Virus record (IMG/VR): IMGVR_UViG_3300035130_000204
DNA: 64,000 nt
Source of the DNA: an uncultured virus (IMG/VR IMGVR_UViG_3300035130_000204)
Lineage: Duplodnaviria > Heunggongvirae > Uroviricota > Caudoviricetes
Direction: 5' to 3' (one strand)
In this document: in pieces, positions 5,020-62,667 of the stretch
Layout of the letters: the number at the start of each line of letters is the position of its first letter
Position numbering within the stretch: position 1 is the stretch's first letter
Notes under the pieces: generated by a model
Seen by the model: the letters and a program-made list of their open reading frames with translations, nothing else
What the model was told of the DNA's origin: nothing
The model's database searches: none
Made by a program: the position numbers and the translations under genes

Positions 5020-5653
5020 CGGCGTGCCTCTCAAGGTCCTCGTCACCCTCCGGCGGTGCACCAGAATCAAGCAGCCCATCGAGCTTCGCGCGGATGGCAT
5101 CGATCAGATCGGCGTCCAGCTCGCTATCCTTGGCCGTCGCCAACGCGTTGACGAGGCTCTCGACGTTCCGACCTTCGTAGGGCTTGCCGAGCGCACCGTT
5201 GAGCGTCGAGCTGATCTGCTGCACCGCCTGGGCCCCAAAGGTCTCCGAGTCGCTCAGGCCCGCGCCGCTCTCGTACATCGACAGCGGATCGCCGGCCCAC
5301 GACGGCACCTTCTTCTTGCGGCGGTTGAGGATGTCCTTGCCGAGACCGAGGCTCGCAACCATCTCGCGATGGTGCTCCGCGATGGTCTCGATCATCCTAA
5401 GGACGCGCGCAGAGTTGCCCGGCGTGATCTCGCGGACGAGCGACAGGATCGTCGTCTTCGCCTGACCGACGATATCTTCGGCCAGCTTCTGCTCGATCTC
5501 CTCCATCGTGTCCTTGACGAAGTCGTCATCGTCCTTGCCCAACAACAGCTCCTTGGCGAAGTCCTCGTCCTTGCCAAACAACTTGGCCGCCACCACTGCG
5601 GTCGCCGGTGTGATCTCAGATTTCACTTTGTCCCCGTGCTCGTTAGCATCCAT
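5009..5653 (-). CDS. Hypothetical protein
   Basis: 214-aa ORF with RBS-like sequence. Confidence 0.65.
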   Translation of the reverse strand: MDANEHGDKVKSEITPATAVVAAKLFGKDEDFAKELLLGKDDDDFVKDTMEEIEQKLAEDIVGQAKTTILSLVREITPGNSARVLRMIETIAEHHREMVASLGLGKDILNRRKKKVPSWAGDPLSMYESGAGLSDSETFGAQAVQQISSTLNGALGKPYEGRNVESLVNALATAKDSELDADLIDAIRAKLDGLLDSGAPPEGDEDLERHADAE

Positions 5654-5673
5654 AGCTCACCCCTTTCCCTCGG

Positions 5674-6024
5674 CTAGCTCTTCTTCCTTTGCGTCAACGA
5701 CGCCATCCACTCATAGACGCGCGCAGAAAGCCGCTTGTGATCTTCGCGTGCCTTTGCTTTACGCTCTTGCCGCTCCTTCTTGCGCCGCTCGGCCGCGTCG
5801 TGCTTCTCCTGCTCCACTGCACGGCGCTGCTCCGGCGACGGCTTTGCAATTGGTTCGAAGGCGCCCACGTCACCAACACGGCGACCTCGACGAACATCAC
5901 TCTCTGCTTCTTTCGCTCGCCGATCTCGAACCTGGCGTGCCTGTACGCGCGCTGCCTCGCGCCGAATCCATCGGGTCTTCTTACGTGACCTCAATGGCTT
6001 CTTTTTTCCCTTTGGCTTCTTCAT
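5674..6024 (-). CDS. Highly basic Lys/Arg-rich protein
   Basis: MKKPKGKKKPLRSRKK... Confidence 0.6.
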   Translation of the reverse strand: MKKPKGKKKPLRSRKKTRWIRREAARVQARQVRDRRAKEAESDVRRGRRVGDVGAFEPIAKPSPEQRRAVEQEKHDAAERRKKERQERKAKAREDHKRLSARVYEWMASLTQRKKS

Positions 6025-6028
6025 GGTG

Positions 6029-6970
6029 TTAATCCCCACACAGGTTGACATCGTCAGTCAACACGCCGTGCCTGGACAGCAACTGGATGATGGTCGCGCC
6101 GCAGCCACGTTTGGCCAGGTCGGCCGCCATGGAGCTATCGCCACCCGCGAGCCACTCGTGGGCCAGCTCCTCAACCTCCTTGAGGGCCTTGGCTCTGTCG
6201 CGACCATCGACCGCGACGACGCCGACGACGTCTTCCTCGCCTTGCTTCGTCACTTCCTTAGCAGCCATGCCGAGGATCTCTTCCAGAATAGTAACCCTTT
6301 CCTCGGATTGCCTCTCGATCCTGTCCACACGCCGCTCGAGCCTCCTGTAGTCCGCCGCGTCGAACTTGAAGCGGTTCGCGCTTTCCTTGTCGGCTCGGAG
6401 CTTGTTCTTGAAGTGCTCCTGCATGGTTCCGACAAGATTGTTGAGAGTCTGCATGACCTCTTCCATGTTGTCGGCTCTCTGCACAACGCTGCGGACAACT
6501 GCCTCGATCCCTTCGATGCGCGAACTCAGGGCGTCGCCTTCCGCAGAGCCTGTCGCAGATGCCTCGGCAGAGCCCATCCGCTGCGGTTCGCGCTTCTCAC
6601 TCTCTTTTGGTCCCACAACTACCTCCTTTTGCCCACTGGTATCGCAGCCGAAGAGCATATCTGCCTGAACTCGCATCACCTCCTCGAATGGCGACCTTTC
6701 CATGTGCTCTGGCGTTTCTATCTTCACCACGCGGACCCATCGCGCCGCCTTCTTGCCTGGCTCACCTGGGTCGACGCACTTGACCACACCGAACCTTTCG
6801 AGCTGCTTGAGCGCAAGGTCGACGCCTTCTGGCCTGACCCCTGGCGCCACATTCTTGAGTCCATGGACGATCTGATTAACGGTCCACATGGCGTAGGCTC
6901 CACCCTCGGTGCCCGCCATCGCCATCAGCTTGCCAACCTTGTCCCGAAGCTCTACCTCGGAAATTGCCAC
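6029..6970 (-). CDS. Hypothetical coiled-coil protein
   Basis: 313 aa; AGGAGG RBS. Confidence 0.7.
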   Translation of the reverse strand: MAISEVELRDKVGKLMAMAGTEGGAYAMWTVNQIVHGLKNVAPGVRPEGVDLALKQLERFGVVKCVDPGEPGKKAARWVRVVKIETPEHMERSPFEEVMRVQADMLFGCDTSGQKEVVVGPKESEKREPQRMGSAEASATGSAEGDALSSRIEGIEAVVRSVVQRADNMEEVMQTLNNLVGTMQEHFKNKLRADKESANRFKFDAADYRRLERRVDRIERQSEERVTILEEILGMAAKEVTKQGEEDVVGVVAVDGRDRAKALKEVEELAHEWLAGGDSSMAADLAKRGCGATIIQLLSRHGVLTDDVNLCGD

Positions 6971-6979
6971 GTGCGCCTC

Positions 6980-7300
6980 CTAGTCCAGGTGTTTACGCCC
7001 GCAAGACGGGCAAGCAATGCAAAGACTTTGATCACAGGCAGGACAACTCTCTGGCAGCTCCTTGCCATGAAGAAAAGCCTCGGTGTCGGCCGTGAGCGTT
7101 TTTTCGGGCGAAACATCACAGAACGCCCACCGCTCGAGCAAGCGATGGGCGGCCGTAAGCGAAGCGCAGCGGCCGTACTTGCACAGGCCCTCGCCCTTGA
7201 GCGCATCGAGAGCGTCCTGAGGACGATGCTGCTCGAGCAAGGTAATGGCTCTGCAAATACGGGCCCGTGCAAGATCGCGTTCGCGTTCGAAGTCCGACAT
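6980..7300 (-). CDS. Zinc-finger protein
   Basis: C-terminal CPAC...CIACPSC. Confidence 0.6.
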   Translation of the reverse strand: MSDFERERDLARARICRAITLLEQHRPQDALDALKGEGLCKYGRCASLTAAHRLLERWAFCDVSPEKTLTADTEAFLHGKELPESCPACDQSLCIACPSCGRKHLD

Positions 7301-7306
7301 CGCTGC

Positions 7307-10967: not shown

Positions 10968-11456
10968 TCAAACAGGAAGATCGCCGTCTTCTTCGTCCTG
11001 AGGATTCTCTTCGCCAGCTGACACGTCAAGCTCTAGCTGCTCGACCGGCTTGTATTTGATGGACACGCGGTAGTAGCTCGTAGCACGCAAGAGCGCAGCT
11101 GCGCTGTTGAGCCCTGCGCGGAGCTGCCTCTTGACGTGATCGGGCTCCGCCTCATTGCTTGGCACGATAACGATGGACCCGAAGTGTTCTTGGCCATTCG
11201 GAAGCGCAAAAGGTCCCCGGGCGGTGAGCGACACGGCCCGTGCCCACTCGCTGGCGCCGTCGACGTCCGCAGACAGGGAAAAGGTGTCCAGGGCGCGGCC
11301 TAGGTCTCGCAAGCATCGCGAGATGTTCGTCGGATCGTCATCCTTAGGACGTAGCCTAGCCGTGAAGCAGTAGGCCGTCTCTCTTTCCTCGCCAAGCTCG
11401 GCCGTCCCTATCGCGAGCAGCACATTGTTGTTCTTGAGCTTCGCCATCTGCCTCAT
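10968..11456 (-). CDS. Hypothetical protein
   Basis: GGAGG RBS; acidic C-terminus. Confidence 0.6.
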   Translation of the reverse strand: MRQMAKLKNNNVLLAIGTAELGEERETAYCFTARLRPKDDDPTNISRCLRDLGRALDTFSLSADVDGASEWARAVSLTARGPFALPNGQEHFGSIVIVPSNEAEPDHVKRQLRAGLNSAAALLRATSYYRVSIKYKPVEQLELDVSAGEENPQDEEDGDLPV

Positions 11457-13448: not shown

Positions 13449-14002
13449 ATCTGAGCACCGTCGACCGCGAAGAGCTGGAGGCCTTCACGGCCCAGGCACT
13501 CGCCAGGCTGGGCAACCTCGAAGGAACCATTCAGAATCTGGAGGAGCAGCTGCAGGTCGACCCTGGCGTCATCGACAGCTGGCGCGACTGGTGCGCGACC
13601 GTCGAAGAGGAGCGCAAGAAGTGGGCAGACACCGCCACCGAGCTGGAACGTAAGCTCCAGGCCGAGCGCAAGGAGAACTCCAGGCTGTTCCAGGCCGTCA
13701 AGGACCTGACAGTCGGCATGGAGCGCATTCACGACGCTGCCAGGCGCGTCAAAAACCCCAAGGCTCGTACTCTGGACCTGAAGCGCGCCATAGACAGTAT
13801 CCACGAGCAGGCCGGCGCGGCCATGGCAGATGCCTACAATGAGGTCCTCGGATATCCTCAGGACATCGACGACCAAAAGATTCGCCAGGCGTATCGCCCG
13901 GATCGCGTACAGATTGTCACGAACAAAGCAGGTATTTGGGTGTCGCCCGAAGACGAGGCGGCGCTGGAAGAACACAAGCCGCGTCCTGAGGACGCAAAGT
14001 AA
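13436..14002 (+). CDS. Coiled-coil hypothetical protein
   Basis: Heptad-rich 188 aa. Confidence 0.65.
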   Translation: MEELNLSTVDREELEAFTAQALARLGNLEGTIQNLEEQLQVDPGVIDSWRDWCATVEEERKKWADTATELERKLQAERKENSRLFQAVKDLTVGMERIHDAARRVKNPKARTLDLKRAIDSIHEQAGAAMADAYNEVLGYPQDIDDQKIRQAYRPDRVQIVTNKAGIWVSPEDEAALEEHKPRPEDAK

Positions 14003-21222: not shown

Positions 21223-21295
21223 GGCTATCTCCTCAGGACGTTACCGCCCTCGCTGCAAAAAAGGTTTTTCTCGGGCTAAACACCGGGGCGTTTCC

Positions 21296-30626: not shown

Positions 30627-30804
30627 GGAGCCCCTGCGACATAATCCTAAGGACGAACGAACACTTCAGCCGTCCCATCACATCTGCATGCTGAACGGCA
30701 TGTACGACGGGGCCAACCGCACAGGCCTTCGGACCCTATCCTTTCATGATCGTACTCTTAAAGGCAAGAATCCTGAGAACGTCACGGTTGGCAACATCTG
30801 CTAG

Positions 30805-31329
30805 GTGCGTTACGCTCGGGTTGAGACCAAACACATGAAGCTCTGGTACCAGCTTCTCCAGCACCCGTCAGGCTACGAAAACCTCGATGTCGTTGCAGAA
30901 TTCTTAGAGGTGTGGTTCAAGACCAGACGCCTTCATGCCATCGACCCTGGCGAGCTAGCAGGCGTGATCGACGTGCTGTACGACTGCGCACCCGCAAGCA
31001 CCGAATGGGTGACGATTCTGCTTCGTCCCCAGGAGCTTGCCAGGTACATCACGGTCTACATGAAGGACGAGTACGACGGCGGCGCGATGATGAAGGGTCG
31101 CGACACCAAGCTGTCAACCAAGTACAAGGAGTGGCTCCAGCGCGGGCACGAGCCCCCGCCGATCCTGGTTGCTGGCGCAGAGAACGACGATGGCACCGAG
31201 CGCGGGATCATGCTCATCGACGGACGACACCGCATCTACGCGTCCATTGCGGCGGGTCTGAAAACGATAAAAGCCTACATACCGAAGAACCACCTTTCGT
31301 ATCTTCGCGACGCTGAGCTAGTCTCCTAG
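30805..31329 (+). CDS. ParB/Sulfiredoxin-like domain protein
   Basis: PPPILV...LIDGRHRIYASIAAGLKTIKAYI. Confidence 0.8.
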   Translation: MRYARVETKHMKLWYQLLQHPSGYENLDVVAEFLEVWFKTRRLHAIDPGELAGVIDVLYDCAPASTEWVTILLRPQELARYITVYMKDEYDGGAMMKGRDTKLSTKYKEWLQRGHEPPPILVAGAENDDGTERGIMLIDGRHRIYASIAAGLKTIKAYIPKNHLSYLRDAELVS

Positions 31330-35845: not shown

Positions 35846-35996
35846 AAGGTGTCCTCAGGATGCAGGTTCTAGGCGCGAGCCAGAGAGAGATCTGATCTGC
35901 TGCGTCCCAGGGATTATGGGCGCTTCGGAGAAAAGTGATCGCCCGATGCAGATCGATGCTTGACACGAGGGCGTCACTCGGACGACTGTGGTCAGC

Positions 35997-38804: not shown

Positions 38805-41800
38805 ATGGCATTGGACGAGCCCAAGCCCAGCAACGTTCATGACCACGATCACCATGATGAAGACGAGCACGCATACTACGTGCCGGGCTTGCCCGAGGGG
38901 GAGCCCGTCGTCTACGCCAACCACGCGGAGGCCTACGCAGCGCTAGAGAAATCGCTGATGCCTTACAGGACGAATGACCCGATCGCTGGCACGTGTGTGC
39001 TGGCGAAGGCCACTCCGGGCGTTGGCAAGACGAAGGTCGCCCTGCATATGGCGGCCATGAAGTGCGTCGACAACAAGCGGGGCATGTGGGCCGCTCCGAC
39101 GCGCAACATCGCGTGGCAGGCCCACGACAGGCTGAAGAGCGACGAGTACGGAACCAAGGTTCTCATGCTCGAGGGGCGGCACAACGGCTATGTAGCGGTG
39201 CGCACAGACAAGTACGGCGTCGAGACCGAGCAAGAGGTTCTGCCCAACTGCGTGCGCTACGATCGTATCGCCCTAGCGCGTAAGCGTGGCTATCCAGCTC
39301 GGACCTACGTGTGCAACGGCTGCCCGCACTGTCCCACGTTTCGCAACAGCAAGGGTGAGAAGCCGCTGAGCGATCAGTGGTGCCGCTACTTCAAGGTGCT
39401 CTACGAGGCCAACAATCTACCGAACGGCGAGAAGCAGTCGACTTTCTCGGGCTACATCAGCTCCGAGGAAGCCCAGAGCATCAAGAACAGCAAGATGGAA
39501 AAGATCATCGTCACCACGCATCACATGGCGGCGGCGATGATCGCTGACGGCGAGATGCTCAGCCCTGATTGGGTCATCTTCGACGAGGACCCCATCAGCG
39601 CTCTGCGCGAGACGTATGTTTGGAACGAAGACGAGCTGGACCGCGACATCGACGGCGACAACTTCATCGTCTTCAGGGCGCTCCTGAAACGCACCATCTA
39701 CCTTGCCAAGAAGCACCTGGCTGAGCCTCTCGATACGCCGGACGACAAGAAGGTCCGTGTTCAGCTTCGATACAGCGTGCACCAAGCGACCGAGTACGGT
39801 CACACGACGCTGTGGGGCAAGGACATGGCGAGGTTCATGGTCATCGCGGCTCGGCAGCTCAATGTCGACCTGAAGACCGTCCTCGAGACGACGGCGAACA
39901 CCATGCCTCCCGTCAACCCTGGACAGCTTTCCTACATGCCGAACGACGAGGTCGAAAGGCTTCCGCACTACAAAGAGGTCGACCTGGCTGGAGAGCTGCT
40001 GCGAGTCCTTGAGGCAGCAGAGGATCAGAAGGAGACGGCCTACAAGGTCAGCTTGCGCAACGAACCCGGCAAGGGGTGGGCCTTCGTCTGGGACCACGTC
40101 AGACGCATTAGCTACGAAGGCCCCCTGTTCTTCCTCGACGCCTACGGTTCGCCAGAGATCGTCAAGCGCTACACGAACCGCGAGGTGACGCTCATCGACG
40201 TCAAGTGCCAGGTGCGAGACAACGTCACGGTGCGGCTATACCCAGAGGTGTCGACGAATCGGTCCGATATGGACGAGGCAGGGGAGCGCGAGTGCATCTT
40301 CGACGACTGGCTGCTTCCAGAGCTGCGCAAGCACAACGGAAAGCGAGTGCTCATCTACACGCAGAAGCGTTACGTGAGCTGGCTCGAGCAGAAGATCGCT
40401 GACGAGGAGGACACCCTAGACTTCGCCTCGATCAACTTCAAATGGTTCTGGCAGGACCGCGGCGACGACTCCTTCGGCGACTTCGACACCGTTATCGTTT
40501 TCGGGACACCGATCCCCAACGTCATCGCCGAGCGGCAGTTCGCCAACGCGCTGTACGCTGGTGAGGAGCCCCTCAGCTGGAAGACAAACGGAAAGAACGA
40601 GTACCTGGACGTCCGTGCTGCAGAGCACACCAAGGCTAGACAGCAAAACGAGCTTCTCCAATGCGTCTACCGGGTTCGCCCGGCGCTACCAAACTCGAAA
40701 CCACAGGCGATTGTGATATTTTCCAGGATGAAGCTGCCCGTGGAGTTTGAGTTGAAGGGCGCTAAGCAAGAGAAGATGCACGATAGGCACGACGAGAAAT
40801 CGCGGTATGCCATCGGCATCTGGCATATGTACCGCGATCTTGGCTGTTACGCCGACGCCTTCGCGCCGTTCATCGGGGTAGATAAGCACTTCGTCGAGTG
40901 GGCGCGCGGAGAGCGCGACGACTTCCCGATGGACTACGAGACCATGTGCCGTCGGCACAATCGTGTCCTCAGGACTAGGTCCTACCGTAACGGTCGAACC
41001 TTCGCCATGAAGTACTTCTGCAACCCCAGGCCCAACGAACCGGTGCCGGTTCGTCAGACGCTCTACCGAGGAAAGGTCCTCAACTTCTTCGGAAACGAGG
41101 AGACGGTCCACAAGATTCTCGATCGGATGTTCGAGGCCACGCGCGAGCCTGGTGTGGACAACGAGTCGGTAGAGGATCAAGGGCGCGCAGGCCCTGAGCC
41201 TGGAAGCTGGCAGCAGTACCTGCCGCTCGCGGCCTGGCGCAAGGGGTTGGTCATCGAGAACGTCATCCGTTCGCTCCAAGGGGAGCTGTTCTTCAGCGGC
41301 AAGTGGCGTCCCGATGAGTGGCTTCCGACGGAGGTGCAGTATCTGATCGACGACCTACACATGGAGCATCCGTGCCTGATCGGGGTGCACCGGATGCTGT
41401 CCATGAAGTGCTACTTCGAGGAGAAGGGCTTTACCAATGTCCCGGACCCTCTCGAAGACCAAGTGAAGTTCTGGGCCTTCATCCGTGGTCACATGGACAT
41501 CTACTACGAGATCATGGAGAAGACCAAGGGTATGACCGAGGCCAAGACCATCGATGAGTTCGTCGTCGAAGAGGACCCCGATCCTGGAGATGGCGGCGAC
41601 AAAAAGGCCCCGGTACCCAAAAACGTCTATGATATTGGCATCGGAACAGCGGAAGTGAGTGTAGGTGGTCAAGACGAGGTCAAGTCGACCTCGTCCGAGG
41701 GTGGTCAGGTTGGGTTGGTGATTCCGCTCATCGTTTCCTCGCCAAGCTCGGGCTCGGATGGCGTCTCAGAAGGAGGGGGCTCTGTCGGCGACGAAGAGGA

Positions 41801-41888
41801 CCCCTCTGCTGAGCCCTCAGGGGGCTCCTCAGGCCCCGACGGTGGTCCTGCCTCCGGACCAGGCCCCCCTGACGAAGACACGTCCTGA
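38805..41888 (+). CDS. Large SF2-like helicase/origin-binding protein with Cys cluster
   Basis: TPGVGKT Walker A, MWAAPTRN, IFDED Walker B, LLQCVYRVRP motif VI-like; C..CNGCPHC..C. Confidence 0.75.
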   Translation: MALDEPKPSNVHDHDHHDEDEHAYYVPGLPEGEPVVYANHAEAYAALEKSLMPYRTNDPIAGTCVLAKATPGVGKTKVALHMAAMKCVDNKRGMWAAPTRNIAWQAHDRLKSDEYGTKVLMLEGRHNGYVAVRTDKYGVETEQEVLPNCVRYDRIALARKRGYPARTYVCNGCPHCPTFRNSKGEKPLSDQWCRYFKVLYEANNLPNGEKQSTFSGYISSEEAQSIKNSKMEKIIVTTHHMAAAMIADGEMLSPDWVIFDEDPISALRETYVWNEDELDRDIDGDNFIVFRALLKRTIYLAKKHLAEPLDTPDDKKVRVQLRYSVHQATEYGHTTLWGKDMARFMVIAARQLNVDLKTVLETTANTMPPVNPGQLSYMPNDEVERLPHYKEVDLAGELLRVLEAAEDQKETAYKVSLRNEPGKGWAFVWDHVRRISYEGPLFFLDAYGSPEIVKRYTNREVTLIDVKCQVRDNVTVRLYPEVSTNRSDMDEAGERECIFDDWLLPELRKHNGKRVLIYTQKRYVSWLEQKIADEEDTLDFASINFKWFWQDRGDDSFGDFDTVIVFGTPIPNVIAERQFANALYAGEEPLSWKTNGKNEYLDVRAAEHTKARQQNELLQCVYRVRPALPNSKPQAIVIFSRMKLPVEFELKGAKQEKMHDRHDEKSRYAIGIWHMYRDLGCYADAFAPFIGVDKHFVEWARGERDDFPMDYETMCRRHNRVLRTRSYRNGRTFAMKYFCNPRPNEPVPVRQTLYRGKVLNFFGNEETVHKILDRMFEATREPGVDNESVEDQGRAGPEPGSWQQYLPLAAWRKGLVIENVIRSLQGELFFSGKWRPDEWLPTEVQYLIDDLHMEHPCLIGVHRMLSMKCYFEEKGFTNVPDPLEDQVKFWAFIRGHMDIYYEIMEKTKGMTEAKTIDEFVVEEDPDPGDGGDKKAPVPKNVYDIGIGTAEVSVGGQDEVKSTSSEGGQVGLVIPLIVSSPSSGSDGVSEGGGSVGDEEDPSAEPSGGSSGPDGGPASGPGPPDEDTS

Positions 41889-42583
41889 GCCGGCTCAGGC
41901 GCAGCGCTGAGGCATTCGGGGCAGAGCCCTCGAGGCTCCTCCCCGAAGCCCGTGTCGCCGGTATAGCAGGTCCAGCACAGCGGCTTGTGGCAGCCCTTGC
42001 AGTAGGTATCGGCAGAGCTGCCACAGCCAGTGCTGCAATCGCCCTCTGGCGGTGGCTCGACAGCCTTGACGCGCATGGCGCCTCCGCCCTTGAGCGGCGC
42101 CAGAGAGCCCACTGGGTTGGTTGGGTACGGCAGAAGAGCGTCCTGAGGATTGTTTAGCGCCTCGATGGCTGCCTCGGCAGCCAGCTTGTCGCCTAGAGCA
42201 TCCTCGAGCACCTTGATGCGGCCGACGAGTTGGCTTTTCTCTCGGTTGAGCGTCGCGATGCGTGCGTCCAGCTTCGCGATGTGCTCTTCCATCCTCAGGA
42301 CGTCGGCATCCGAGACCGGCGAGATGCCGGCGTGGTGACATGCCTGTCTGGCAATGGATTCCAGGGCGCCTCTGAGGTGTCGCGCTTTTTGCTCGAGCTT
42401 GGACAGGCGTCGCAGTGATGCACCGTGATCGATCACTTCGCCGATGCCTTCGTTTTCAAGCCTCCACTCGAGGGCCTCGCGGCACAGACGCGAGACGTTG
42501 ACGCCGGGCTTGTCGACGAGGGCTTCAACAAGCTCGGCTGGAAGGTAGACGGAAACTCGTTTTCCCTTCTTCTTGGTGCTCAC
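41705..42583 (-). CDS. Ribbon-helix-helix regulator with coiled coil and zinc finger
   Basis: KRVSVYLPAELVEAL...NVSRLCREAL; CKGCHKPLCWTC...CPEC. Confidence 0.7.
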   Translation of the reverse strand: MSTKKKGKRVSVYLPAELVEALVDKPGVNVSRLCREALEWRLENEGIGEVIDHGASLRRLSKLEQKARHLRGALESIARQACHHAGISPVSDADVLRMEEHIAKLDARIATLNREKSQLVGRIKVLEDALGDKLAAEAAIEALNNPQDALLPYPTNPVGSLAPLKGGGAMRVKAVEPPPEGDCSTGCGSSADTYCKGCHKPLCWTCYTGDTGFGEEPRGLCPECLSAAPEPAQDVSSSGGPGPEAGPPSGPEEPPEGSAEGSSSSPTEPPPSETPSEPELGEETMSGITNPT

Positions 42584-44007: not shown

Positions 44008-44040
44008 GATTTTATTCTCCTTGATACTTCGCTGTAGTCC

Positions 44041-44358
44041 TCAGGACTTTTTCGATGTTGTCTTGTCAGCCTGCAACCAGCATTTTTCTGCCAGCTCTGG
44101 CGTCAGGTGAAGGACGGTTCCGAAGTGAACACCATCAAGGCATACCGCGGCACCGTCGTAGCCGACGTCGCGGGGCCACCTGTGTGGAGTGAAGCGAGCC
44201 ACAACGATGCGCCAATCGCCTTGACTGGAGACACCAGCGAAACCAGATGCTTTGGGATCGCGGTTGGCGTTTAGGTCTTGGCGCGTCCACTCGAAGTCGT
44301 CATTGTCGACGATCTCTGTTACGGAGCGCAGGACCTCCTCCATTAGTTGTTTGCTCAT
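44041..44358 (-). CDS. Hypothetical protein
   Basis: ATGA coupling with the upstream gene. Confidence 0.6.
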   Translation of the reverse strand: MSKQLMEEVLRSVTEIVDNDDFEWTRQDLNANRDPKASGFAGVSSQGDWRIVVARFTPHRWPRDVGYDGAAVCLDGVHFGTVLHLTPELAEKCWLQADKTTSKKS

Positions 44359-49419: not shown

Positions 49420-50676
49420 CTAACCTCCATCTTCGTGGAGGGCCTGTACGAAGTCGGAAAGCGCTCGCTGGAGCACCTGGGCGGCTTTGATGAGCTGCGT
49501 GCGCTCGGGGGGGCGCTTGCCGTTCGTCTTGGACTTGGGAGTGAAGCTGGTCTGTGCTCGGGTGCCTGGCTCTACGAAGTCATCGTCCTCAGGATCATCT
49601 TCATCCAGCATGTCGTGGAGGACGTCGGCCTCTTCGTCGCCTTCGGCGTCGACTACGCGGCCATAGGCGCGCTCACGCACTTCCTCGGCCTCGTCCTCAC
49701 CAAGGTCGGCTTCGTCCAGGATCGCGGCCGGTATGTCGACTTCCTCGAGCCCCTTGACCAGCCGCAGCAGGTCGAGGTTGAGGTCGCTCCACACGCCGTT
49801 GTGCCCGCTGCCCAACGCGGCGTAGAAGGCTTGCTTGACCGTGTAGACGTTGCGCTCGCCGCGTCGCTCCTTGCAGCTGTTGAAGCGTTCGAAGGCCTGC
49901 TCGGTTGAGTATGCTCGGCGCTTGTCGGCCTTGGCGACAGGGAGCTTGCTCTGGCTGATGATCGCCTTGTTCGCGGAGTCCTTGCGGAAAATTGTCCAGG
50001 CGGACATCTTGCTCGTCCAAGGCACGTCGTCGAGCGCATCGCGCCTGCCAAGGATAGGCTCGGCGAACTCCTCCTCTTGAGGTTCGACAGGAAGCTCGTC
50101 GGGAACATCCTCGTCCATGACGACCCAGACCTCGTGACCGCAGCGTCCGCACAGACGCTCGGCGTCTTCCAGGACGTGCATGGCGCAGTTGTCCGGATCG
50201 GAGACCGCGGCGATCAGGTCGTGCTGGTAGGGCGTGAATGGCGACCCCCACCAGGGGACCTCGCCAGCGTGGATGCGCTCGGTGGTCACTGGCTCCAGGT
50301 CGCCGCCCTGCATGACGCAACAGCAGCGCCCCCAGGGGTGAATCCACATATTTTCGTTACGGATCGAACGGACGTTGGACCCTGCGATGCGATCAGGCGG
50401 AGCCATGGGGGCGTCTTCTGGTACTTCCACCAGCTGCAGCTCGTCACGGTCGGATTCGAGAACGCAGCCCATGGCGGTTTCGATGTCCTGGATCTGGCAC
50501 ATGCTCTGGTGGTCGTCGGCGTCCATCGAGACGGGATAGATCACGCCGCGGTCCTTGCCTCGCTCGGAGCGGCAGATCATGACCACGTCGTCAGAGTCCT
50601 CAGGACTAGGGATGACCAGCTCGACGCGACCCATCTCAGGACCTAGGGGATGGCGGTACAGCTCGATCTGGCTCAT
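49420..50676 (-). CDS. Acidic hypothetical protein
   Basis: Start MSQIELY after GGAG; CGRC. Confidence 0.7.
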   Translation of the reverse strand: MSQIELYRHPLGPEMGRVELVIPSPEDSDDVVMICRSERGKDRGVIYPVSMDADDHQSMCQIQDIETAMGCVLESDRDELQLVEVPEDAPMAPPDRIAGSNVRSIRNENMWIHPWGRCCCVMQGGDLEPVTTERIHAGEVPWWGSPFTPYQHDLIAAVSDPDNCAMHVLEDAERLCGRCGHEVWVVMDEDVPDELPVEPQEEEFAEPILGRRDALDDVPWTSKMSAWTIFRKDSANKAIISQSKLPVAKADKRRAYSTEQAFERFNSCKERRGERNVYTVKQAFYAALGSGHNGVWSDLNLDLLRLVKGLEEVDIPAAILDEADLGEDEAEEVRERAYGRVVDAEGDEEADVLHDMLDEDDPEDDDFVEPGTRAQTSFTPKSKTNGKRPPERTQLIKAAQVLQRALSDFVQALHEDGG

Positions 50677-51930: not shown

Positions 51931-51978
51931 GTTGTCCCTCCTGTTTTACGTCCTGAGGACGGAAATAGGACGAGGCCT

Positions 51979-52041: not shown

Positions 52042-52908
52042 CTAGTCGAGGTCGCTCAGGAACTTGATCATGCCGTCGACTTCCTCATCGGAGATGTCGC
52101 CGATGGCCCACTGGATTCCGTGCAGGAAATCCTCGCTGACGAAGTCGGCAACGCCTTCGACGTGGGCGTTGACGACCTTGCGGGCCACCCGCTTGCCAGG
52201 AGCGAGCGACGGCTTTGTGCCCTTGGCGGCGGCGCGAGCGGCCTTCTTGCCGCTGGGCCTCTTGCCGTTCGAGCTGGCGAGAAGCTCCTTGAGCTTTTCT
52301 GTCTGCTCGGACTTGTCGAGCTTGTGGAGCTGCAGCGCCGTGGAAGGCGCGATCTTCTCTTCGTCGACCGCCTTGAGCACGGGCGCGGACAGGTCCAGGA
52401 GCTTCTGCCAGTTGGAGACGGTCTGGGCCGAGACGCCGATGTAGTCGGCGACCTCGGGCACAGACATACCACGGTCGATCAGGCGCTGCGCCTTGCGCGC
52501 CTTGGTCGACATGGAGTCCTCCTGGGTGAAGCTGTTGGTCGACAGTGACAGGCCCATCAGGGCGTCCTCGCTGCCTCGCTGCGGGATCACCTTGATGCGC
52601 AGCTCGGGCTCGCCTTGTTCCTTGAGGATCTTATTCGCCTGGCGAGCGCCGCGGACACGCTGACGTCCGTCAACCACTACGGCACGGTCAACCCCGTCGA
52701 CCTGCAGCTTGGTGCAGGTGACGGCCTTGATGACGCCGACCTTCGAGATGTTCTGGACGAAGCTGCCCGGCACGGGCAGCTTGATGCGCTCATCCCACAG
52801 GAAGTGCTCAGGGCCGTCCTTGGTGTCCAGCCCGATGATGACCACGTCCTCGGGGGCCATGTAGTAACCGTCGAAACGCTTTCCGTCCTTGAAGAAGCTC
52901 GTACCCAT
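52042..52908 (-). CDS. ParB-like protein (ParB N domain plus HTH)
   Basis: VVVDGRQRVRGA; GMSVPEVADYIGVSAQTVSNW. Confidence 0.85.
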   Translation of the reverse strand: MGTSFFKDGKRFDGYYMAPEDVVIIGLDTKDGPEHFLWDERIKLPVPGSFVQNISKVGVIKAVTCTKLQVDGVDRAVVVDGRQRVRGARQANKILKEQGEPELRIKVIPQRGSEDALMGLSLSTNSFTQEDSMSTKARKAQRLIDRGMSVPEVADYIGVSAQTVSNWQKLLDLSAPVLKAVDEEKIAPSTALQLHKLDKSEQTEKLKELLASSNGKRPSGKKAARAAAKGTKPSLAPGKRVARKVVNAHVEGVADFVSEDFLHGIQWAIGDISDEEVDGMIKFLSDLD

Positions 52909-52932
52909 GATGTCCCTCTTTCTGCGTCCTCC

Positions 52933-54147
52933 TCAGGACGCCTTGTTCTTGCCCCTCCGCTTTCGTGGCCTCAGGGCGGTGGTTGCAGTCCGCTCCGCGA
53001 CGTTCTCTAGCGCCGCGCGGACCAATGTTGTGGTTTCGATGCCCCGCTCTTTTCCATAGCGCTGGAGCAGGGCGTTGAGCTTACGGGTCGAGACGTCGCA
53101 GACCTCGCTGACTACGTCGTCGAAGGGCAGGTCGGTGCCCTCGGATATGATCCTGAGGGACTCGGCTGTCGGGTAGCTGACTCCGCGTCGACGAGACAGG
53201 CTGTAGAGCGTCTCGCCCATCTCGGCGCGCCCGCCGCTCGCTTCGAGAAAACTCTTGATTGCGGCGGTCAGCTCCTTCTTCCGACTCTCGAGAATTCTCA
53301 GGATACCGTTGATGTCCTCGCGCTCGCGGGAGACGGCGTCGAGGTCTTCCAGGCTCTCGGCGATGATCTTTCGCTCGCCTGTCAAGGCGCGTGCGTACTC
53401 AGGACATTGGTCTTGTCCTGGGCAGTATGGGCATCCGACGTTGAGCTGCGGACGCCATGTCGTGTCGGCCTCCATCTGGTGAGCCGTCACTAGGATGTAC
53501 TCGCGCCACTCGTCCAGCTCCAAGGCTGTGTGGGTAATCAGGAGTGGCTCGCCAGTGCGGAGCATCCAGTAACCGGAACGAATGTGCGTCGCCGTAGGCT
53601 CGATCTCGTGTTGGGCCGTTATGGCGTAGCTGGCGATCTGGACCGAATCCCGGACGTCGGTGGTCGTCAGAAACTGCCGCGTGCTCTTGTAGTCGAACAC
53701 CGTCAGATTGACGAAAAGCTCGCCCGTATCCTCGTCCATCTCCTCAGTACGGTCGACCCTGTCGATGCGCTCACGAAGCATGACCTTGTCGTCAATGACC
53801 AGCTCGAAGGGGTGCTCCAGCGCGAAAAGCTGCGCTGGGTCGACAGGCCCTTGCTTTTCGCACAGCGTCTGGACCATGGACCAGCCATCGGTGAAAAGCT
53901 CTTTGCCCTTGGCGCCGTGCCGCTGCCACTCCTCGTTGTAGAGATTCTCGGCCAGGGCAGCGTCGAAGTGCCTGGGCTTGTCGAGCGCAAGGTGCGCGCG
54001 TGCCACGCGTTCCAGCACGTCGTGGACGATGCGCCCCAGAAGCGCCGAGGGGTTGGTCGGCGACCGCAGCTTCAGGTGTCGCGTGAAGTGATGGAGTAGT
54101 GGGCAGCGGTCGTACTCTTCAAGTGCGGTTGGCGACGTAATGATCAT
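52933..54147 (-). CDS. PD-(D/E)XK (RecB/Cas4-like) exonuclease
   Basis: SPTALEEYDRCP, LGRIVHDVLE, IDRVD, DYKS, QIASY, CPYCPGQDQCP. Confidence 0.88.
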   Translation of the reverse strand: MIITSPTALEEYDRCPLLHHFTRHLKLRSPTNPSALLGRIVHDVLERVARAHLALDKPRHFDAALAENLYNEEWQRHGAKGKELFTDGWSMVQTLCEKQGPVDPAQLFALEHPFELVIDDKVMLRERIDRVDRTEEMDEDTGELFVNLTVFDYKSTRQFLTTTDVRDSVQIASYAITAQHEIEPTATHIRSGYWMLRTGEPLLITHTALELDEWREYILVTAHQMEADTTWRPQLNVGCPYCPGQDQCPEYARALTGERKIIAESLEDLDAVSREREDINGILRILESRKKELTAAIKSFLEASGGRAEMGETLYSLSRRRGVSYPTAESLRIISEGTDLPFDDVVSEVCDVSTRKLNALLQRYGKERGIETTTLVRAALENVAERTATTALRPRKRRGKNKAS

Positions 54148-54155
54148 GATGGCCT

Positions 54156-56048: not shown

Positions 56049-56050
56049 AA

Positions 56051-56419
56051 TCAATCCTTTTGGGTGTACTTGTCCCAGACGGCTTGCGTGTCGACGATGT
56101 CCTCGGCCAGGCTGTAGAGCCTCTGCGAACGCTGTCGGTGCTGCTCCAGGATCGTCTCGACGCGACCAAGCATTCTCCTGAGGACGTCAAGCAGCTCTGG
56201 CGGGAATTCCGGGTCGCTCTCTGCCGTGTAGACGTAGTCGACGTAGAGCTGTGCGACGCCGTTGTACGTCAGTGGCAGGTCGGAGTTGTTGATGATGTGC
56301 ATGGAGTTCTGAATGGCTGCCATGCGCGTGGCGGTGTCACCATCCCAGGCAGGCTGCAGGGCCTTGGCGGCGTTGTTGAAAGTGGCGCGCCAAGCGGCGC
56401 GCCGCTCCTTGCGGCTCAT
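56051..56419 (-). CDS. Hypothetical protein
   Basis: AGGAGGAG RBS. Confidence 0.65.
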   Translation of the reverse strand: MSRKERRAAWRATFNNAAKALQPAWDGDTATRMAAIQNSMHIINNSDLPLTYNGVAQLYVDYVYTAESDPEFPPELLDVLRRMLGRVETILEQHRQRSQRLYSLAEDIVDTQAVWDKYTQKD

Positions 56420-57600
56420 GTCTCCTCCTTGGCTACGGAGTATTCGTGCCCGCGCAGGGCAGTGGCTACGTCCTTGCCACGAATGTGCGGGGCGATCCAG
56501 ATGAGCTTGCGCTCGGAGTGACGAGGTCCGCACGCCTGGCGTCGGTAATGCCCACGCACGACGGTGCGCACGGTGATCTTGCGATCGGTCGCACGGCCAG
56601 AGCGATACGCCTCACGGATTCCTGGTGCGATCTTCACGTTGCTCCGTACCAGCGTGAGGTTGTGTGGCGGCAGCCCGCCGTGACGTGCAGCACGACGACC
56701 CTTCTTGGTGCTCTTGAGTTGCACTCGCTCAGTGGCGGCCTGGTCGCTCGTCAGAAACAGAAGCATGTTGAGCACGAAGCGCTGCAGTAGCTCCATGCCG
56801 GCACGTTTTGGCACTACGGAGCCAAGGATCTTGGCGCTGGTCGCTTCGACGTAGGACTCGTAGATGGTGCCCGCAAGCTCGTTGTGTTTGGCGTCGAGCT
56901 GCGAGCAGAGAGTCTCCACGCTCTTGTGTGGGTCTGACAGTGGCACAGTCCAGTGTACGAAGTTGTTGTCGAGCACGTCGGAGGAGTTTGCGTTTGGCTC
57001 GGTGTCCGCGACGATCAGCAGGCGACGGCCGCACAGATCCAGATATGGCGAGTTGTAGTAGCCCTCACAGACGTACAGGGCCCGCGTATCGTGCCAGCCG
57101 GTCAGACGATGGTAGAGCGACAGGACTCCGCGCGGAAATTCGACGTAAATGGCAGGCAAAGGCATACGCACGTCCTCAGGACGAAGACCCTGTGCGTCTG
57201 TCGCCAGAAGCGCGTGAACGAGCGCGTCCTCAAGACGAAACCAGCACTTGCCGTACTCACGCCAGCGCGCGGAGCACCAGGCGAGCACGCTGTCTGTGCG
57301 GCAGCGGTCCTGAAGCTCGATGTCCATCTCGTCCTGGGGCAGGTACAGCAAGCTGCCCGGTGCTGCTGCGACGTCATCGCTCCAGACGCGCAGCCAGTCG
57401 GCTCCAACGTCTGTGTGGGGGTCAAGCAGCTCGGAGTACCAGCCGCAGTCCTTCGCGGCTTCTGGGCAGCGCTCCTCGGCGAGGGCGTTGACGATCTCGG
57501 CCCGGTGCCGAAAGGTTGGTTTGCCGCGCTTGATGGCGTCCTGGGAGGCGATGTACATGCCTTCCAGTCGCGGCCATGCGCGGACGACGGCCGGTTGCAT
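56416..57600 (-). CDS. Phage protein with C-terminal VRGH..RQ..GP...LIWIAPH..G motif
   Basis: VVRGHYRRQACGPRHSERKLIWIAPHIRG, a motif I recall from phage proteins of unknown function. Confidence 0.7.
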   Translation of the reverse strand: MQPAVVRAWPRLEGMYIASQDAIKRGKPTFRHRAEIVNALAEERCPEAAKDCGWYSELLDPHTDVGADWLRVWSDDVAAAPGSLLYLPQDEMDIELQDRCRTDSVLAWCSARWREYGKCWFRLEDALVHALLATDAQGLRPEDVRMPLPAIYVEFPRGVLSLYHRLTGWHDTRALYVCEGYYNSPYLDLCGRRLLIVADTEPNANSSDVLDNNFVHWTVPLSDPHKSVETLCSQLDAKHNELAGTIYESYVEATSAKILGSVVPKRAGMELLQRFVLNMLLFLTSDQAATERVQLKSTKKGRRAARHGGLPPHNLTLVRSNVKIAPGIREAYRSGRATDRKITVRTVVRGHYRRQACGPRHSERKLIWIAPHIRGKDVATALRGHEYSVAKEET

Positions 57601-58598: not shown

Positions 58599-58602
58599 GG
58601 CG

Positions 58603-58878: not shown

Positions 58879-58888
58879 GTTGTCCCTC

Positions 58889-59149
58889 CTAGCGTCCTGA
58901 GGACAGTTTGATGACGGTCATTTCTGGTGGTAGCGGTGTTTTGTGCAGAACAAGGCGCCCAGCTGCAGTGACGGTGATGTCGGTGAGCAGTCCGTCGCAG
59001 TCGTTGCCGGTGATTAGACCGCGACGAAAAAGCGATGCGACCGTTCTCCAGTCGCGACGGCCTGCGCATTCCCAGCACAGCATTCCGTCAGCGACCCGTT
59101 GCAGTATTGCGATCTGCCGTTGCGACAGGCGCGGCGTTTTAGCGCCCAT
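58889..59149 (-). CDS. Small winged-helix-like protein
   Basis: LSQRQIAIL...TVASLFRRGLI...VTAAGR. Confidence 0.5.
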   Translation of the reverse strand: MGAKTPRLSQRQIAILQRVADGMLCWECAGRRDWRTVASLFRRGLITGNDCDGLLTDITVTAAGRLVLHKTPLPPEMTVIKLSSGR

Positions 59150-59697: not shown

Positions 59698-59812
59698 GGT
59701 GTCCCTCCTTCCGGCGTCATTGCCGGCTTCCAAGCGACCGACGTCCCGCAGGACGTCGGCCCCTTGCGAGCCGGCAGGCTCGCGTTGTCTTGTGTGTCGC
59801 CGTCCTGAGGAT

Positions 59813-60739
59813 TCAGGCGGCGTCCTCGTCGGAGTTATTGGCGGGAACCTCGGGGTCGGGCCCCGCGTCTTCGATGATGAGGCGCGCGGGGTCGAGCGGG
59901 ACGTTGGGCTCGGGGTTGGGTCGGCGCTCGGCGCAGTAGTTGGCGAGCATGTGCGAGACGACGCCGGCCCGCGTCCTGGCGGCCACGTACCGTGGCTTGT
60001 CGTCCTCCTCCTTGGTGTCGCCGTACCAGACCTTCCAGAGCGGCATGGGCTTGGCCGGCGGCCGTGCCACGGTGCCGCCGAGGGCCTCGGCGACGCGAGC
60101 CGCCGTGGCGAGGTCCATTCGGATCGTGAAGTCGCTTGCCTCGCGGCGGTCGCCCGGAAAACAAGTGCCGTCGCGGCTGCTCGCTTCGACGTCGAGCGTC
60201 TTCAGGATGGCGACAAGCTGCTCGCCAAAAGCGCTTGCCTCGTCAACCGACGCTTTGCGCCGCGCCTCGGTGCGCTGCTTGAGGTCGCGCTCGGCGTGAA
60301 CGGCAGCCACAGCGTCGGCGTCGGCCGCGATGTGCGCCTCCGCGCCGGGACCGTGGAGCCGGAAGGTGTCAGGGAGTTGGCAGAGGTGCTCGCTGTCGGC
60401 TCGGCTGGAGTCCAGGTTGCCGACGAGCAGGTGCCGCTGGTAGAACCGCTGGCGCGGCTCGCTGTCGTCCCAGCGGTCCCAGGTGTTGACGGATAGCGAG
60501 AGCCTGTGCTCGGACTTCCAGATGATCGGGCGCTTGCCTGTCAGCGGCTCCTGGCGATAGGTGGCCTTGTCGTTAAGGCGCACCGTGGTGTCGCGAGCGA
60601 GCACGAGGTCGTTCATCTCGCGGTCGAATGGGTCACGCATGTGCAGGGCCTGCACATGGCGCGCGTCCTTGCTTTCGGGCACGAGATAGCCTGCGGCTCT
60701 CGCCATGCATCCCTCGCACCACACAATTTTGGTCCTCAT
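59813..60739 (-). CDS. Hypothetical protein
   Basis: AGGAGGGACAACCCATG start. Confidence 0.7.
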   Translation of the reverse strand: MRTKIVWCEGCMARAAGYLVPESKDARHVQALHMRDPFDREMNDLVLARDTTVRLNDKATYRQEPLTGKRPIIWKSEHRLSLSVNTWDRWDDSEPRQRFYQRHLLVGNLDSSRADSEHLCQLPDTFRLHGPGAEAHIAADADAVAAVHAERDLKQRTEARRKASVDEASAFGEQLVAILKTLDVEASSRDGTCFPGDRREASDFTIRMDLATAARVAEALGGTVARPPAKPMPLWKVWYGDTKEEDDKPRYVAARTRAGVVSHMLANYCAERRPNPEPNVPLDPARLIIEDAGPDPEVPANNSDEDAA

Positions 60740-60853
60740 GGGTTGTCCCTCCTGGTTGCTGACCTAGCACGGGCCGCCGTCCGCGGGGACGACGGCCCGT
60801 GGCGGGCCAGCAGCCCGCGTTGCGTTTGGTTAGAATCCTGAGGATGTTGCCCG

Positions 60854-61174
60854 CTAGTCGCGGGCCTCGATGTCATCGGGTGGGACCAGCTCTTCATCGC
60901 CGGTGAGCAGTACGGCAATGGGCTCGATGCACTCCTCGCCCTCCTCGTCCTCGCACACGCCGCAGAGAACCACGCGGCGCTCGCCGTTGACCGTCCAGGC
61001 CATGCCCTGCAGGCCGTCCTCGAAGGCCCCGCAGTGTGCCAGGAGGTCCAGGGCCTCGATCTCCTCCTCGGTGAGGTCGCCGGCCTCCGGTGGAGCCTCC
61101 GGTGCGTCCCGTCGAGCCTCCCGCTGGGCCTGGCGCACGGCCTCCAGGCTCACCACTCCAGCTGCTTCTGCCAT
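60854..61174 (-). CDS. Acidic hypothetical protein
   Basis: 106-aa ORF. Confidence 0.6.
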   Translation of the reverse strand: MAEAAGVVSLEAVRQAQREARRDAPEAPPEAGDLTEEEIEALDLLAHCGAFEDGLQGMAWTVNGERRVVLCGVCEDEEGEECIEPIAVLLTGDEELVPPDDIEARD

Positions 61175-61327
61175 GATTCACCCCTGGTTCATGGGCGCCC
61201 ACCCCTGGGCGCCGTGTTTTGGGGGCTGGCGCGGGGGTCGCACCCGCACGCGCCCGATGCCCTGGGCGCGTTCTAGCTTTGCCAGCCGGCCCTGCGACGT
61301 CCTCAGGACGTAGCCGGGGCGCGCGGC

Positions 61328-62539
61328 CTACTTGGCCGCAGCCATCATCTCGGGATCGGGCGCGGAGCCCTTGTCGGGCTCGGAGTCTCCCTTCGGCGCG
61401 GGGCGGAACAGCGGCGCCAGCTCGAGCTGGGCCTCGTCAACCAGACCGGCCTCCTCGATGGCCGCGTTCGTGGCCTCGTCGCGCTTGCTGGAGGCGGCGG
61501 CCACGAGGTACTCCTGCTGCTGCGACAGACCCGACAGGTCCGTCTCGGCGAGCGCGGCCTGGTAGGCCTTCTCATCCTGGGCGGCGCCGGCCACCCAGGA
61601 CTTCGTGGCGCACTTGACCATGTCGACGGTCTGCGCGAGCGAGACGCTGACCTCCTCGGGGAGGATAAGGTCGGCGCCCGCGATGTCCGCGAGCGCGTTA
61701 CGGGCCAGCGAGGCCCGCGCTTTGGCCACGATGGGGACGCGCTTGGCGCGCGGCAGCTTCATGGCCTCGGCGCTCGTCATGCCCTTGGGAAGGGCGCTGG
61801 ATGGGGCCCGCGCGAGGACCTCCGCTTCGTCGTCGTGCTGGGCGCGCTCGACGCGCTCGAACACGGAGCCGATCTGGTCGAGCAGGGCCGCCACGGCGGC
61901 CTTGCTGTCACCGCTCGACTCGTAGAGCGCCCAGTCGAAGACGATCTCGCAAGAGCGGCGGCGCAGCTTGTCGCTGCCCTCCGCGACGGGGATCTCTTGC
62001 TGGTTGAACTTGCGGCAGTTGACGGCGCACGCGGCGAGTGCCCTGGCCAGGTCGTGCCGGTTGGCGCCGGGAATTACGGTCCCCAGTTTGGTCTGGACGC
62101 CCAGCTTGCGTACAGCGCGGTAGCACCACTGCTTGAGTGCGTCGGCGTCCTTGATGTCCTGAGTATTCTCGATGATCGACTCGCCGCGATAGCGGGTGAT
62201 CTGCCGGCCGTCGGCGTCCACCTCCACGCCGTCGACCGTCCGCTCGTTGTGCCTGCCACCTCGGATGCCGATCGAGGTCTGAGCGATCAGGCCGACCACC
62301 TTTGTTACTCGCCCCTCGATGTCCTCGTAGCTCGGCCCGTCGCCCACGCCCTTCACCTGGCGGAACTGCTCCAGGAGCAGCTCCACCCGGGTCGGAGTCT
62401 TGGGCTCGGCGCTCTTTTTTTTGGGCTTTGCCTTGGGCTTTGCCTTGGGCTTGGCGCTGTTCTTCTTGGCCTTCCCGTGCTGGCGCTTGGCCGTAGGAGT
62501 GGGAGACTTGCCCGATCCCTTCGCCGTCGTGCTGCTCAT
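61328..62539 (-). CDS. Hypothetical protein with Lys/Pro/Ala-rich N-terminal tail
   Basis: AGGAGGGACACCATG start; KPKA repeats encoded by a 12-bp tandem repeat at 62421-62455. Confidence 0.75.
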   Translation of the reverse strand: MSSTTAKGSGKSPTPTAKRQHGKAKKNSAKPKAKPKAKPKKKSAEPKTPTRVELLLEQFRQVKGVGDGPSYEDIEGRVTKVVGLIAQTSIGIRGGRHNERTVDGVEVDADGRQITRYRGESIIENTQDIKDADALKQWCYRAVRKLGVQTKLGTVIPGANRHDLARALAACAVNCRKFNQQEIPVAEGSDKLRRRSCEIVFDWALYESSGDSKAAVAALLDQIGSVFERVERAQHDDEAEVLARAPSSALPKGMTSAEAMKLPRAKRVPIVAKARASLARNALADIAGADLILPEEVSVSLAQTVDMVKCATKSWVAGAAQDEKAYQAALAETDLSGLSQQQEYLVAAASSKRDEATNAAIEEAGLVDEAQLELAPLFRPAPKGDSEPDKGSAPDPEMMAAAK

Positions 62540-62558
62540 GGTGTCCCTCCTTTGCAGC

Positions 62559-62633
62559 GGTGCGCTATGCGGGAATCGAACCCGCTGACCAAATCCTCAG
62601 GATTGTGATCACTGATACCAAATCAGATAACGC
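62559..62633 (-). ncRNA. tRNA-like element with non-canonical D and anticodon arms
   Basis: Acceptor GCGTTAT/ATAGCGC, T-arm GCGGG-TTCGATT-CCCGC, discriminator A then CC; 73 nt to the discriminator. Confidence 0.75.
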
Positions 62634-62636
62634 ATG

Positions 62637-62667
62637 CCCAGGCAACATCCTCAGGATGTTGCCTGGG
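62637..62667. repeat. 31-bp palindrome centred on the TCCTCAGGA box
   Basis: CCCAGGCAACATCCT-C-AGGATGTTGCCTGGG. Confidence 0.9.

Follow-up and report, generated by a model that had tools for sequence, protein, structure and literature searches.

Why should a phage carry dozens of copies of one 11-bp word, and which protein, if any, reads them? The question is raised by a 64,000-nucleotide stretch of the uncultured virus IMGVR_UViG_3300035130_000204 (Caudoviricetes; hereafter the window), in which the original prediction had singled out a palindromic box, RTCCTNAGGAY, as the target of a dimeric virus-encoded protein. The window (60.7% GC) is part of a 150.8-kb contig; the runs containing it are wetland metagenomes, and it encodes a primase, helicases, a single-stranded DNA-binding protein, an exonuclease, a Gp3-like protein, an AAA ATPase, fiber-like genes, a ParB-methyltransferase fusion (ParB-MTase), and an orphan ParB. 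The box is a real, selected, and conserved feature: we observe selection, conservation at about 39% protein identity, and a bias toward gene junctions and the early and accessory regions. The explanation we favor, with a probability of roughly 0.6, is that the box is bound by a single sequence-specific protein of this phage lineage, of repressor type and probably dimeric, which damps early transcription. The idea of a dimeric viral protein thus fits the selection, the graded variants, and the presence of the box in a distant relative, but the ParB first suspected is probably not the reader.

An oriented and selected 11-bp box

All 24 RTCCTNAGGAY copies previously reported are present, as are three additional TCCTSAGGA cores (at 21230, 52930, and 56176) and the reported extensions of symmetry (15 bp around 13984 and 61300, and 31 bp around 62648). 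Only 0.24 exact copies are expected, and none of 100 shuffles reached 24 or even exceeded 2; the central base is C or G in 21 copies and A or T in 3. Under an order-3 Markov model, TCCTSAGGA is the top enriched 9-mer of the window (24 versus 0.83 expected). Alignment of all 48 TCCTGAG words yields an oriented consensus, RTCCTGAG[G/T/A]AY (RTCCTGAGDAY), with 33 sites in the window, and a single-substitution scan places the tolerated changes mainly in the half 3′ of the central G. One-off variants do recur, as had been noticed: RTCCTGAG[T/A]AY occurs 12 times (T in 8 copies versus 0.06 expected, A in 4 versus 0.08), and its mirror forms not at all. The box is therefore symmetric in its core, but as a whole is an oriented pseudo-palindrome, with one half fixed relative to the central G, rather than a true palindrome. 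The widest form, RTCYTGRRDAY, has 45 window sites versus 2.5 expected; it was chosen with both this genome and that of the relative G050 (below) in view, so expected values for this form are slightly flattering. The enrichment survives the codon-aware null originally set as a check: 20 coding copies of the 33-site motif compare with 0.71 expected and a maximum of 4 in 500 synonymous-codon shuffles, and 13 strict coding copies with 0.59 expected, so selection must act inside genes too.

Window genes were called by a codon-score script with manual edits (80 genes, 92% coding). The claimed concentration at gene boundaries holds for 11 of the 24 strict copies, which are non-coding or at a gene edge (9% expected, p = 3e-6), but the other 13 lie inside genes; for the 33-site motif, 20 sites are coding and 13 are non-coding or at an edge (again 9% expected, with p = 3e-6). 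RTCYTGRRDAY sites lie preferentially near stop codons (7 of 45 in the window, 17 of 121 in G050) and 10 to 35 nt ahead of starts (6 of 45 and 14 of 121; each p < 0.01), and at 44037, 52929, 57699, and 59802 a stop codon is contained in the box or directly precedes it. The 33-site motif reaches 0.85 per kb in 44-64 kb but has no copy in 16-30.6 kb, and beyond 50960 a box is present in 6 of 8 gaps of at least 40 bp. The fiber genes, said to be box-free, are so for this motif (0 of 33 sites in 16072-30626) but hold 3 of 45 sites under the widest one (depletion p = 0.004, for a region picked post hoc). Recent import is not an obvious cause of this gap, because the fiber region shares with the rest of the window the absence of GAGCTC (0 versus 5.8 expected). 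Relative to transcription, the 33 sites are oriented 17:14 overall.

A distant relative shares the box

A scan with a primase alignment located the relative G050 (L422/L391; 182,770 bases, 95% complete), in which 43 of 258 called genes have window homologs, largely syntenic and with a median identity of 39% over 34 long matches. G050 has 37 RTCCTGAGDAY sites versus 1 for the reversed control, and three more distant primase relatives have none. Strict coding sites number 28 versus 1.9 expected, and additional variants are enriched (RTCCTGGGGAY, 35 versus 0.55; RTCTTGAGGAY, 13 versus 0.74; RTCCTGAAGAY, 13 versus 0.83). RTCYTGRRDAY occurs at 121 sites versus 11 expected, 41 of them non-coding (p = 9e-8), compared with 0 to 11 sites in each of 36 further records; a 42-kb stretch of G050 that had seemed to lack boxes is filled once variants are counted. 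In the G050 early region, a box lies in 14 of 23 gaps, mostly 0 to 22 nt past a stop or 15 to 23 nt before a start. Boxes are common to both phages in two orthologous divergent gaps; the remaining positions have turned over.

Other routes led to no further relative. Single-protein scans of viral contigs with ParB and with the AAA ATPase found no close relative; a pattern search for the box with a ribosome site returned 118 stretches, apparently by chance and none related; and a search for paired boxes returned 40 loci, in whose examined stretches no dispersed boxes were seen, although the blank for one of these (L391) is misleading because L391 is an end of G050. A single word common to two distant phages permits a comparative test, which eliminates the obvious suspect, ParB, and narrows the field to a few candidate genes.

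The orphan ParB is an unlikely reader

The original prediction had proposed parS-like loading, and one might picture parS-like or KorB-like sites at which ParB 52042-52908 clamps and slides so as to silence or organize the genome. The protein has a ParB fold with GxxR and a helix-turn-helix (HTH), its model matches ParB, Noc, and KorB structures (GxxR is conserved, but the GERR glutamate, residue E93 of the M. xanthus entry, is not), and boxes flank parB. Moreover, a dispersed palindrome of some kind is found in 9 of 21 ParB-bearing relatives versus 1 of 15 ParB-less controls (Fisher p = 0.019, for genomes that are non-independent and fall in few clusters, controls that are unmatched, at least one of the nine that looks compositional, and at most 60 kb per genome), and within Corndog gp76-121 the only homologs of window proteins are the ParB-like gp90 (E 1e-4) and the AAA ATPase gp96. 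Against these points, i) the box occurs in G050 although the ParB there has only 30% identity to that of the window and a different recognition helix, and comes 37th when 49 ParBs are ordered by similarity to the window ParB; ii) phages with closer ParBs (42-45% identity) have other words, and none of 16 ParB-bearing relatives has more than one RTCCTGAGDAY; iii) motifs do not track ParB within one cluster of relatives, and G019 and G021 have a common motif and distant ParBs, whereas G001 and G020, with ParBs close to that of G021, lack the motif; iv) no ParA was found among 85 window open reading frames (ORFs) or in any of the 21 ParB-bearing relatives (G050 was not searched with this family), and non-palindromic 8-mers show no excess (p = 0.49); and v) the sites are dozens of dispersed 11-bp words, not a few clustered 16-bp parS. 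The first argument is one of rank and helix, not of the 30% figure, because 30% falls within the ortholog spread here; all such comparisons rest on pairwise identities, the ParB tree being a quick one. Since the box is kept despite the divergent G050 ParB, a parS role is unlikely; we regard both this role and ParB 52042-52908 as the reader of the box as improbable.

Two groups of repeats were set aside in this comparison. CCGG-N5-CCGG in G001 and G020 is a clustered coding repeat with no non-coding copies, and was excluded and the ParB test repeated; palindromes in L147, L198, and L131 belong to local arrays of 60-75 bp repeats (18800-20640, 1686-2600, and 15100-15430, respectively), possibly CRISPR-like or iteron-like. 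Other large relatives have dispersed words of their own: TGTC-N-GACA, mostly intergenic (G010-G013); AAAG-N3-CTTT (G002, G004, G005); GAAARCTC and variants (G006-G008); AAACGTTT (G019, G021); and GAAA-N3-TTTC (L227). G002, G004, and L227 also carry two paralogous ParB genes a few kb apart.

Host regulation and methylation

Could the phage instead be exploiting a regulator of its host, with the box as the binding site? The box has been kept across a wide divergence in spite of much gene turnover; the window yielded no conserved classical repressor; and in two other groups of relatives the motif-sharing genomes (some of them covered in part) share no small DNA-binding gene but ParB. Total avoidance of GAGCTC, seen in the window and also in nine further genomes and four loci, is a hint that their hosts are of a similar group, but those genomes and loci lack the box. 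The overall density of the box, about 0.7 copies per kb or one per 1.5 kb, also far exceeds that in three unrelated bacteria, which are not known hosts and whose genomes of 4-6.5 Mb have 4 to 31 copies of RTCCTGAGDAY. We consider a host-regulator site unlikely. As to GAGCTC itself, it is absent from the whole window (0 versus 40 expected), as is GGATCC, and the avoidance of GAGCTC in ten related genomes probably results from host restriction.

The box had also been proposed as a selected methylation site of the ParB-MTase, and a full-length ortholog of this enzyme was seen only in the two box-bearing phages. The case is weakened by G050, whose ortholog has DPDY for DPPY in motif IV and lacks HPTQKP, yet whose boxes are kept; by shorter cores, which are not enriched in G050 (CTCAG, 500 versus 484); and by a regional and junction bias unlike that of a modification site. 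Selection for methylation is the least credible of the explanations considered here.

Gene exchange and tRNA-like elements

Another of the roles first suggested is recombination: boxes could serve primarily as the points at which accessory-region gene cassettes are joined. A contig from run X8 lacks 59813-60739, and the joint runs from 59788, 14 nt away from box 59802, to 60839, within box 60835; between the AAA ATPase and ParB, only 3 of 21 G050 genes have window homologs, while the 26-nt leader from the 3′ half of box 51950 to the start codon is identical in G050, ahead of a gene without detected homology. But this is a single event (one box-linked joint of nine listed, in contigs of 4 of 22 runs), the joint holds 15 unrelated letters and leaves a broken box, two thirds of the sites are intragenic (including sites in replication genes), the variants are graded, and 11 bp would be short for a tyrosine-recombinase site. 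Recombination, for which we have one observed case, looks secondary, and as the primary role of the box it is quite improbable. Strong GC-rich hairpins lie between boxes and the recurring ribosome site AGGAGGGACA, at 51960-52030 and in the gaps of 57600-61330.

The tRNA-like element at 62561-62634 (fold z -3.7) follows the 31-bp palindrome, and fails as a tRNA gene: ARAGORN finds none, the Rfam score is 22.6 bits versus a cut-off of 47, and the loop is 3 nt. G050 has three such elements in early-gene gaps (68136-68203, 69327-69395, and about 79988-80051), each lacking an anticodon loop though it has an acceptor-like stem and a canonical T arm; at the orthologous place a box is followed by an element as in the window, a second copy also bears a box, and the third element has no box in its arm. 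In the two phages together, the box caps the middle arm of three of the four elements, and a literature search on box-bearing tRNA-like elements found no match. These caps would be expected if the box acted in RNA, either as a 4-bp hairpin with a 3-nt loop or as a CAGGAY word recognized by an RNA-binding protein, the tRNA-like elements then serving as decoys or to signal processing; so would the co-orientation of early sites in G050 (30:6), and the pairing-restoring double variant CTTGAAG (6 versus 0.8 in G050). Coding sites, however, have no strand bias (18:12 and 40:40 in the two phages), early polarity in the window is opposite, and single variants that break the pairing are common (13 versus 0.7). 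We find an RNA role very doubtful.

A probable repressor-type protein and its candidates

A repressor-type protein accommodates these observations best, and of the four roles first proposed, the operator- or stoperator-like one fits best. One protein would occupy dozens of sites and damp early transcription genome-wide, with the box acting as an operator wherever a promoter or leader is covered, and as a roadblock at the remaining sites; its purpose would probably be to hold a silent state. Because boxes and adjoining leaders repeat, they might double as short homologies for gene gain and loss. Lambda operators have an odd length and are bound by a repressor dimer, and by analogy the graded variants with one fixed half would fit a repressor dimer on an odd-length operator. 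A silent state would fit the tyrosine recombinase carried by most relatives (16 of 21 in one set and 4 of 4 in another); G050 and 19 of 24 other related records encode one.

We wish to stress that several points weigh against a repressor. First, early-region boxes favor one direction in G050 (30:6) and the other in the window (17:6), unlike stoperators. Second, a silent state is unsupported for the window phage itself, because the G050 integrase (the tyrosine recombinase, in the stretch 133480-135933) is missing at the syntenic window position 13436-14939, with box 13983 at the junction, and none lies on the window's 150,791-base contig among 120 of 130 homologs listed. Third, a sigma-70 scan of 44101-64000 gave 3 promoter-like matches versus 2.0 expected, so overlap of boxes with promoters is without support. 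Fourth, with the box in just two genomes, co-occurrence gives no way of choosing among the candidate genes. Fifth, the search for a reader covers 64 kb of the 150.8-kb contig, and support for the best candidate, a ribbon-helix-helix (RHH) protein, is weak.

The reader may well lie outside the 64-kb window. Inside it, the best candidate is the RHH-like protein 41705-42583, a tentative choice suggested by its N-terminus, its distribution, and its putative recognition strand, which is partly kept (RVSVYL in the window, HKSVYL in G050). The RHH signal has E values of 0.005-0.055, below cut-off, and 0.25 in another comparison; the 3′ end of the gene overlaps the convergent gene 38805-41888 by 184 bases; and among the phages compared it was seen only in the two with boxes, as were some 40 other genes. 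G050 has further HTH genes in regions outside the counterpart of the window, from a Pfam scan covering 110 of its 258 proteins; its DNA-binding genes include a 62-aa XRE protein at 15419 and tandem-HTH proteins at 18407 and 180341. A host protein as reader seems unlikely, and we put little weight on the ParB-MTase or 30835-31329 (for which a ParB/Srx label was not confirmed), and equally little on the box having no DNA reader. An atlas search of 61328-62539 returned no family, and Corndog gp95 has no clear relation to it.

A more elaborate scheme, in which the box is the hub of a new early-gene module system, strikes us as unlikely: a new reader (possibly the RHH/coiled-coil/B-box protein) would silence dozens of accessory genes, box-leader units would be interchangeable junctions for swapping such genes, and tRNA-like RNAs, with the box where the anticodon arm should be, would cut the early transcript into units or titrate the reader.

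Comparison with known systems

The call of an undescribed system was too strong, as dense arrangements of this kind are already known from Cluster O repeats and stoperators. By analogy of pattern only, the box seems to work most like the 17-bp repeats of Cluster O mycobacteriophages, dense dyad arrays described in 2015 with reader and function left unexplained (PMC4351075). Corndog resembles the window in i) about 0.5 copies per kb (34 in 70 kb, versus 33 in 64 kb here); ii) about 40% intergenic copies (14 of 34, versus 13 of 33 here); iii) a dyad with a 3-bp asymmetric center and no strict orientation; and iv) the highest density among small leftward genes of one arm, with occasional deletions between repeats (PMC4351075). 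Both also have an orphan ParB-like gene and a related AAA ATPase (36% identity) nearby. Our box differs in being a different, shorter word with many graded variants (the 17-bp sequence itself is absent here), in being kept across two phages at 39% protein identity, and in being embedded in tRNA-like elements; and whereas Cluster O has no integrase (PMC4351075), most relatives here carry a tyrosine recombinase.

Cluster A stoperators are likewise dozens of genome-wide sites, mostly off promoters (PMC6550527), compared with 33-45 in 64 kb and 121 in 183 kb here; but they are asymmetric and oriented with transcription (PMC6550527), whereas the box is pseudo-palindromic, unoriented in genes, and of opposite early polarity in the two phages. 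No L5-type immunity repressor is annotated among the window ORFs, and no direct comparison with L5 gp71 was made. KorB/OB of RK2 (PMC11790492) and BisD/bisS of ICEclc (PMC12409273) also pair a ParB-fold protein with palindromic sites on a mobile element, and serve long-range transcription control. In contrast, the ParB here does not co-vary with the box, no KorA/BisC partner or ParA was seen, and bisS comprises two sites (PMC12409273) rather than dozens. Orphan ParBs are common on mobile elements according to the available text of PMC12704722, which names no such site. The PeSL cassettes of T4-type phages are also repeats between accessory genes and have indels at them, compared with one box-linked joint of nine listed here, but they consist of a sigma-70 promoter and stem-loop in hyperplastic regions (PMC2839356), unlike an 11-bp word that is two thirds intragenic. 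Neither part of that anatomy is in excess in 44101-64000, with the 3 promoter-like matches given above and 14 terminator-like ones versus 13.8 expected.

If a repressor-type reader is confirmed, the boxes would amount to a means of silencing the whole genome in a large group of uncultured phages, and regulation might be tied to the exchange of accessory genes.

Features of the window and its relatives

Table 1. Boxes, variants, and associated genes in the window (strand as annotated)
Feature	Coordinates	Strand
Box, A/T center, inside gene 5009-5653	5394..5404	.
Box, coding	7214..7224	+
Box at 3′ end of gene 10968-11447, ~44 nt before next start	10995..11005	+
Box, A/T center, coding	11340..11350	.
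Box, coding	13854..13864	-
Box at 3′ end of gene 13436-14002, ahead of ribosome site of 14014	13983..13993	+
Core-only box overlapping ribosome site of 18760-21222	21229..21239	-
Box, A/T center, divergent gap before fiber operon; G050 box at orthologous place (114086)	30644..30654	.
Small protein with DGRHR motif, 50% identical in G050	30835..31329	+
Box 11 nt past a stop codon	32471..32481	-
Box, intergenic	34769..34779	-
Box, divergent gap M23 peptidase/ParB-MTase; orthologous G050 gap has two boxes	35851..35861	-
ParB-N6/N4 methyltransferase fusion; 43% identical G050 ortholog with altered catalytic motif	36197..37621	+
Box, coding (gene 38805-41888)	40965..40975	-
Candidate reader: weak ribbon-helix-helix N-terminus, coiled coil, B-box-like zinc finger; ortholog in G050	41705..42583	-
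Box inside RHH-like gene	42140..42150	+
Box inside RHH-like gene	42291..42301	-
Box containing TGA stop, ~35 nt before Gp3-like start	44037..44047	-
Box, coding	49585..49595	-
Box, coding	50596..50606	-
Box ahead of ribosome site; 26-nt leader from its 3′ half identical in G050	51950..51960	+
Orphan ParB-fold protein, GxxR motif and HTH; unlikely reader	52042..52908	-
Core-only box containing exonuclease-gene stop, just upstream of parB	52929..52939	-
Core-only box, coding	56175..56185	+
Box, coding	57172..57182	-
Box at gene 3′ end, ahead of ribosome site	58894..58904	+
Box directly past stop of 59813-60739	59802..59812	+
Box-flanked gene, 308 aa, missing from one contig of run X8	59813..60739	-
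Box 9 nt past a stop; contains one end of run X8 indel	60835..60845	+
Box 19 nt past a stop, 15-bp symmetry	61299..61309	-
tRNA-like element: 8-bp acceptor-like stem, D-like arm, box-bearing arm (3-nt loop), canonical T arm	62561..62634	-
Box, apex of middle arm of tRNA-like element	62593..62603	-
31-bp perfect palindrome centered on box 62647-62657	62637..62667	.
RTCCTGAG[T/A]AY variants (n = 12), starts	1402, 4568, 14780, 30770, 34731, 36878, 53294, 53395, 54876, 57699, 58732, 62156	
Weaker RTCYTGRRDAY variants (n = 12), some by chance	10127, 12229, 24671, 25196, 27722, 41581, 45632, 47156, 47340, 57226, 57618, 60198	

At window positions 26137-28483, a poly-gamma-glutamate hydrolase and its neighbor are 72-75% identical to G050, compared with the 39% median, which suggests recent exchange. 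In its early region (82410-85000, L436), G050 encodes a protein of 578 aa that has a zinc domain of the Cas12f/TnpB type; at least 10 CRISPR-like repeats come after it, and nine G050 CRISPR spacers had no match in the window or in 21 relatives. Also in G050, 166145-182765 holds 31 tRNA genes and a tmRNA, and many glycosyltransferases lie at 1.5-24 kb.

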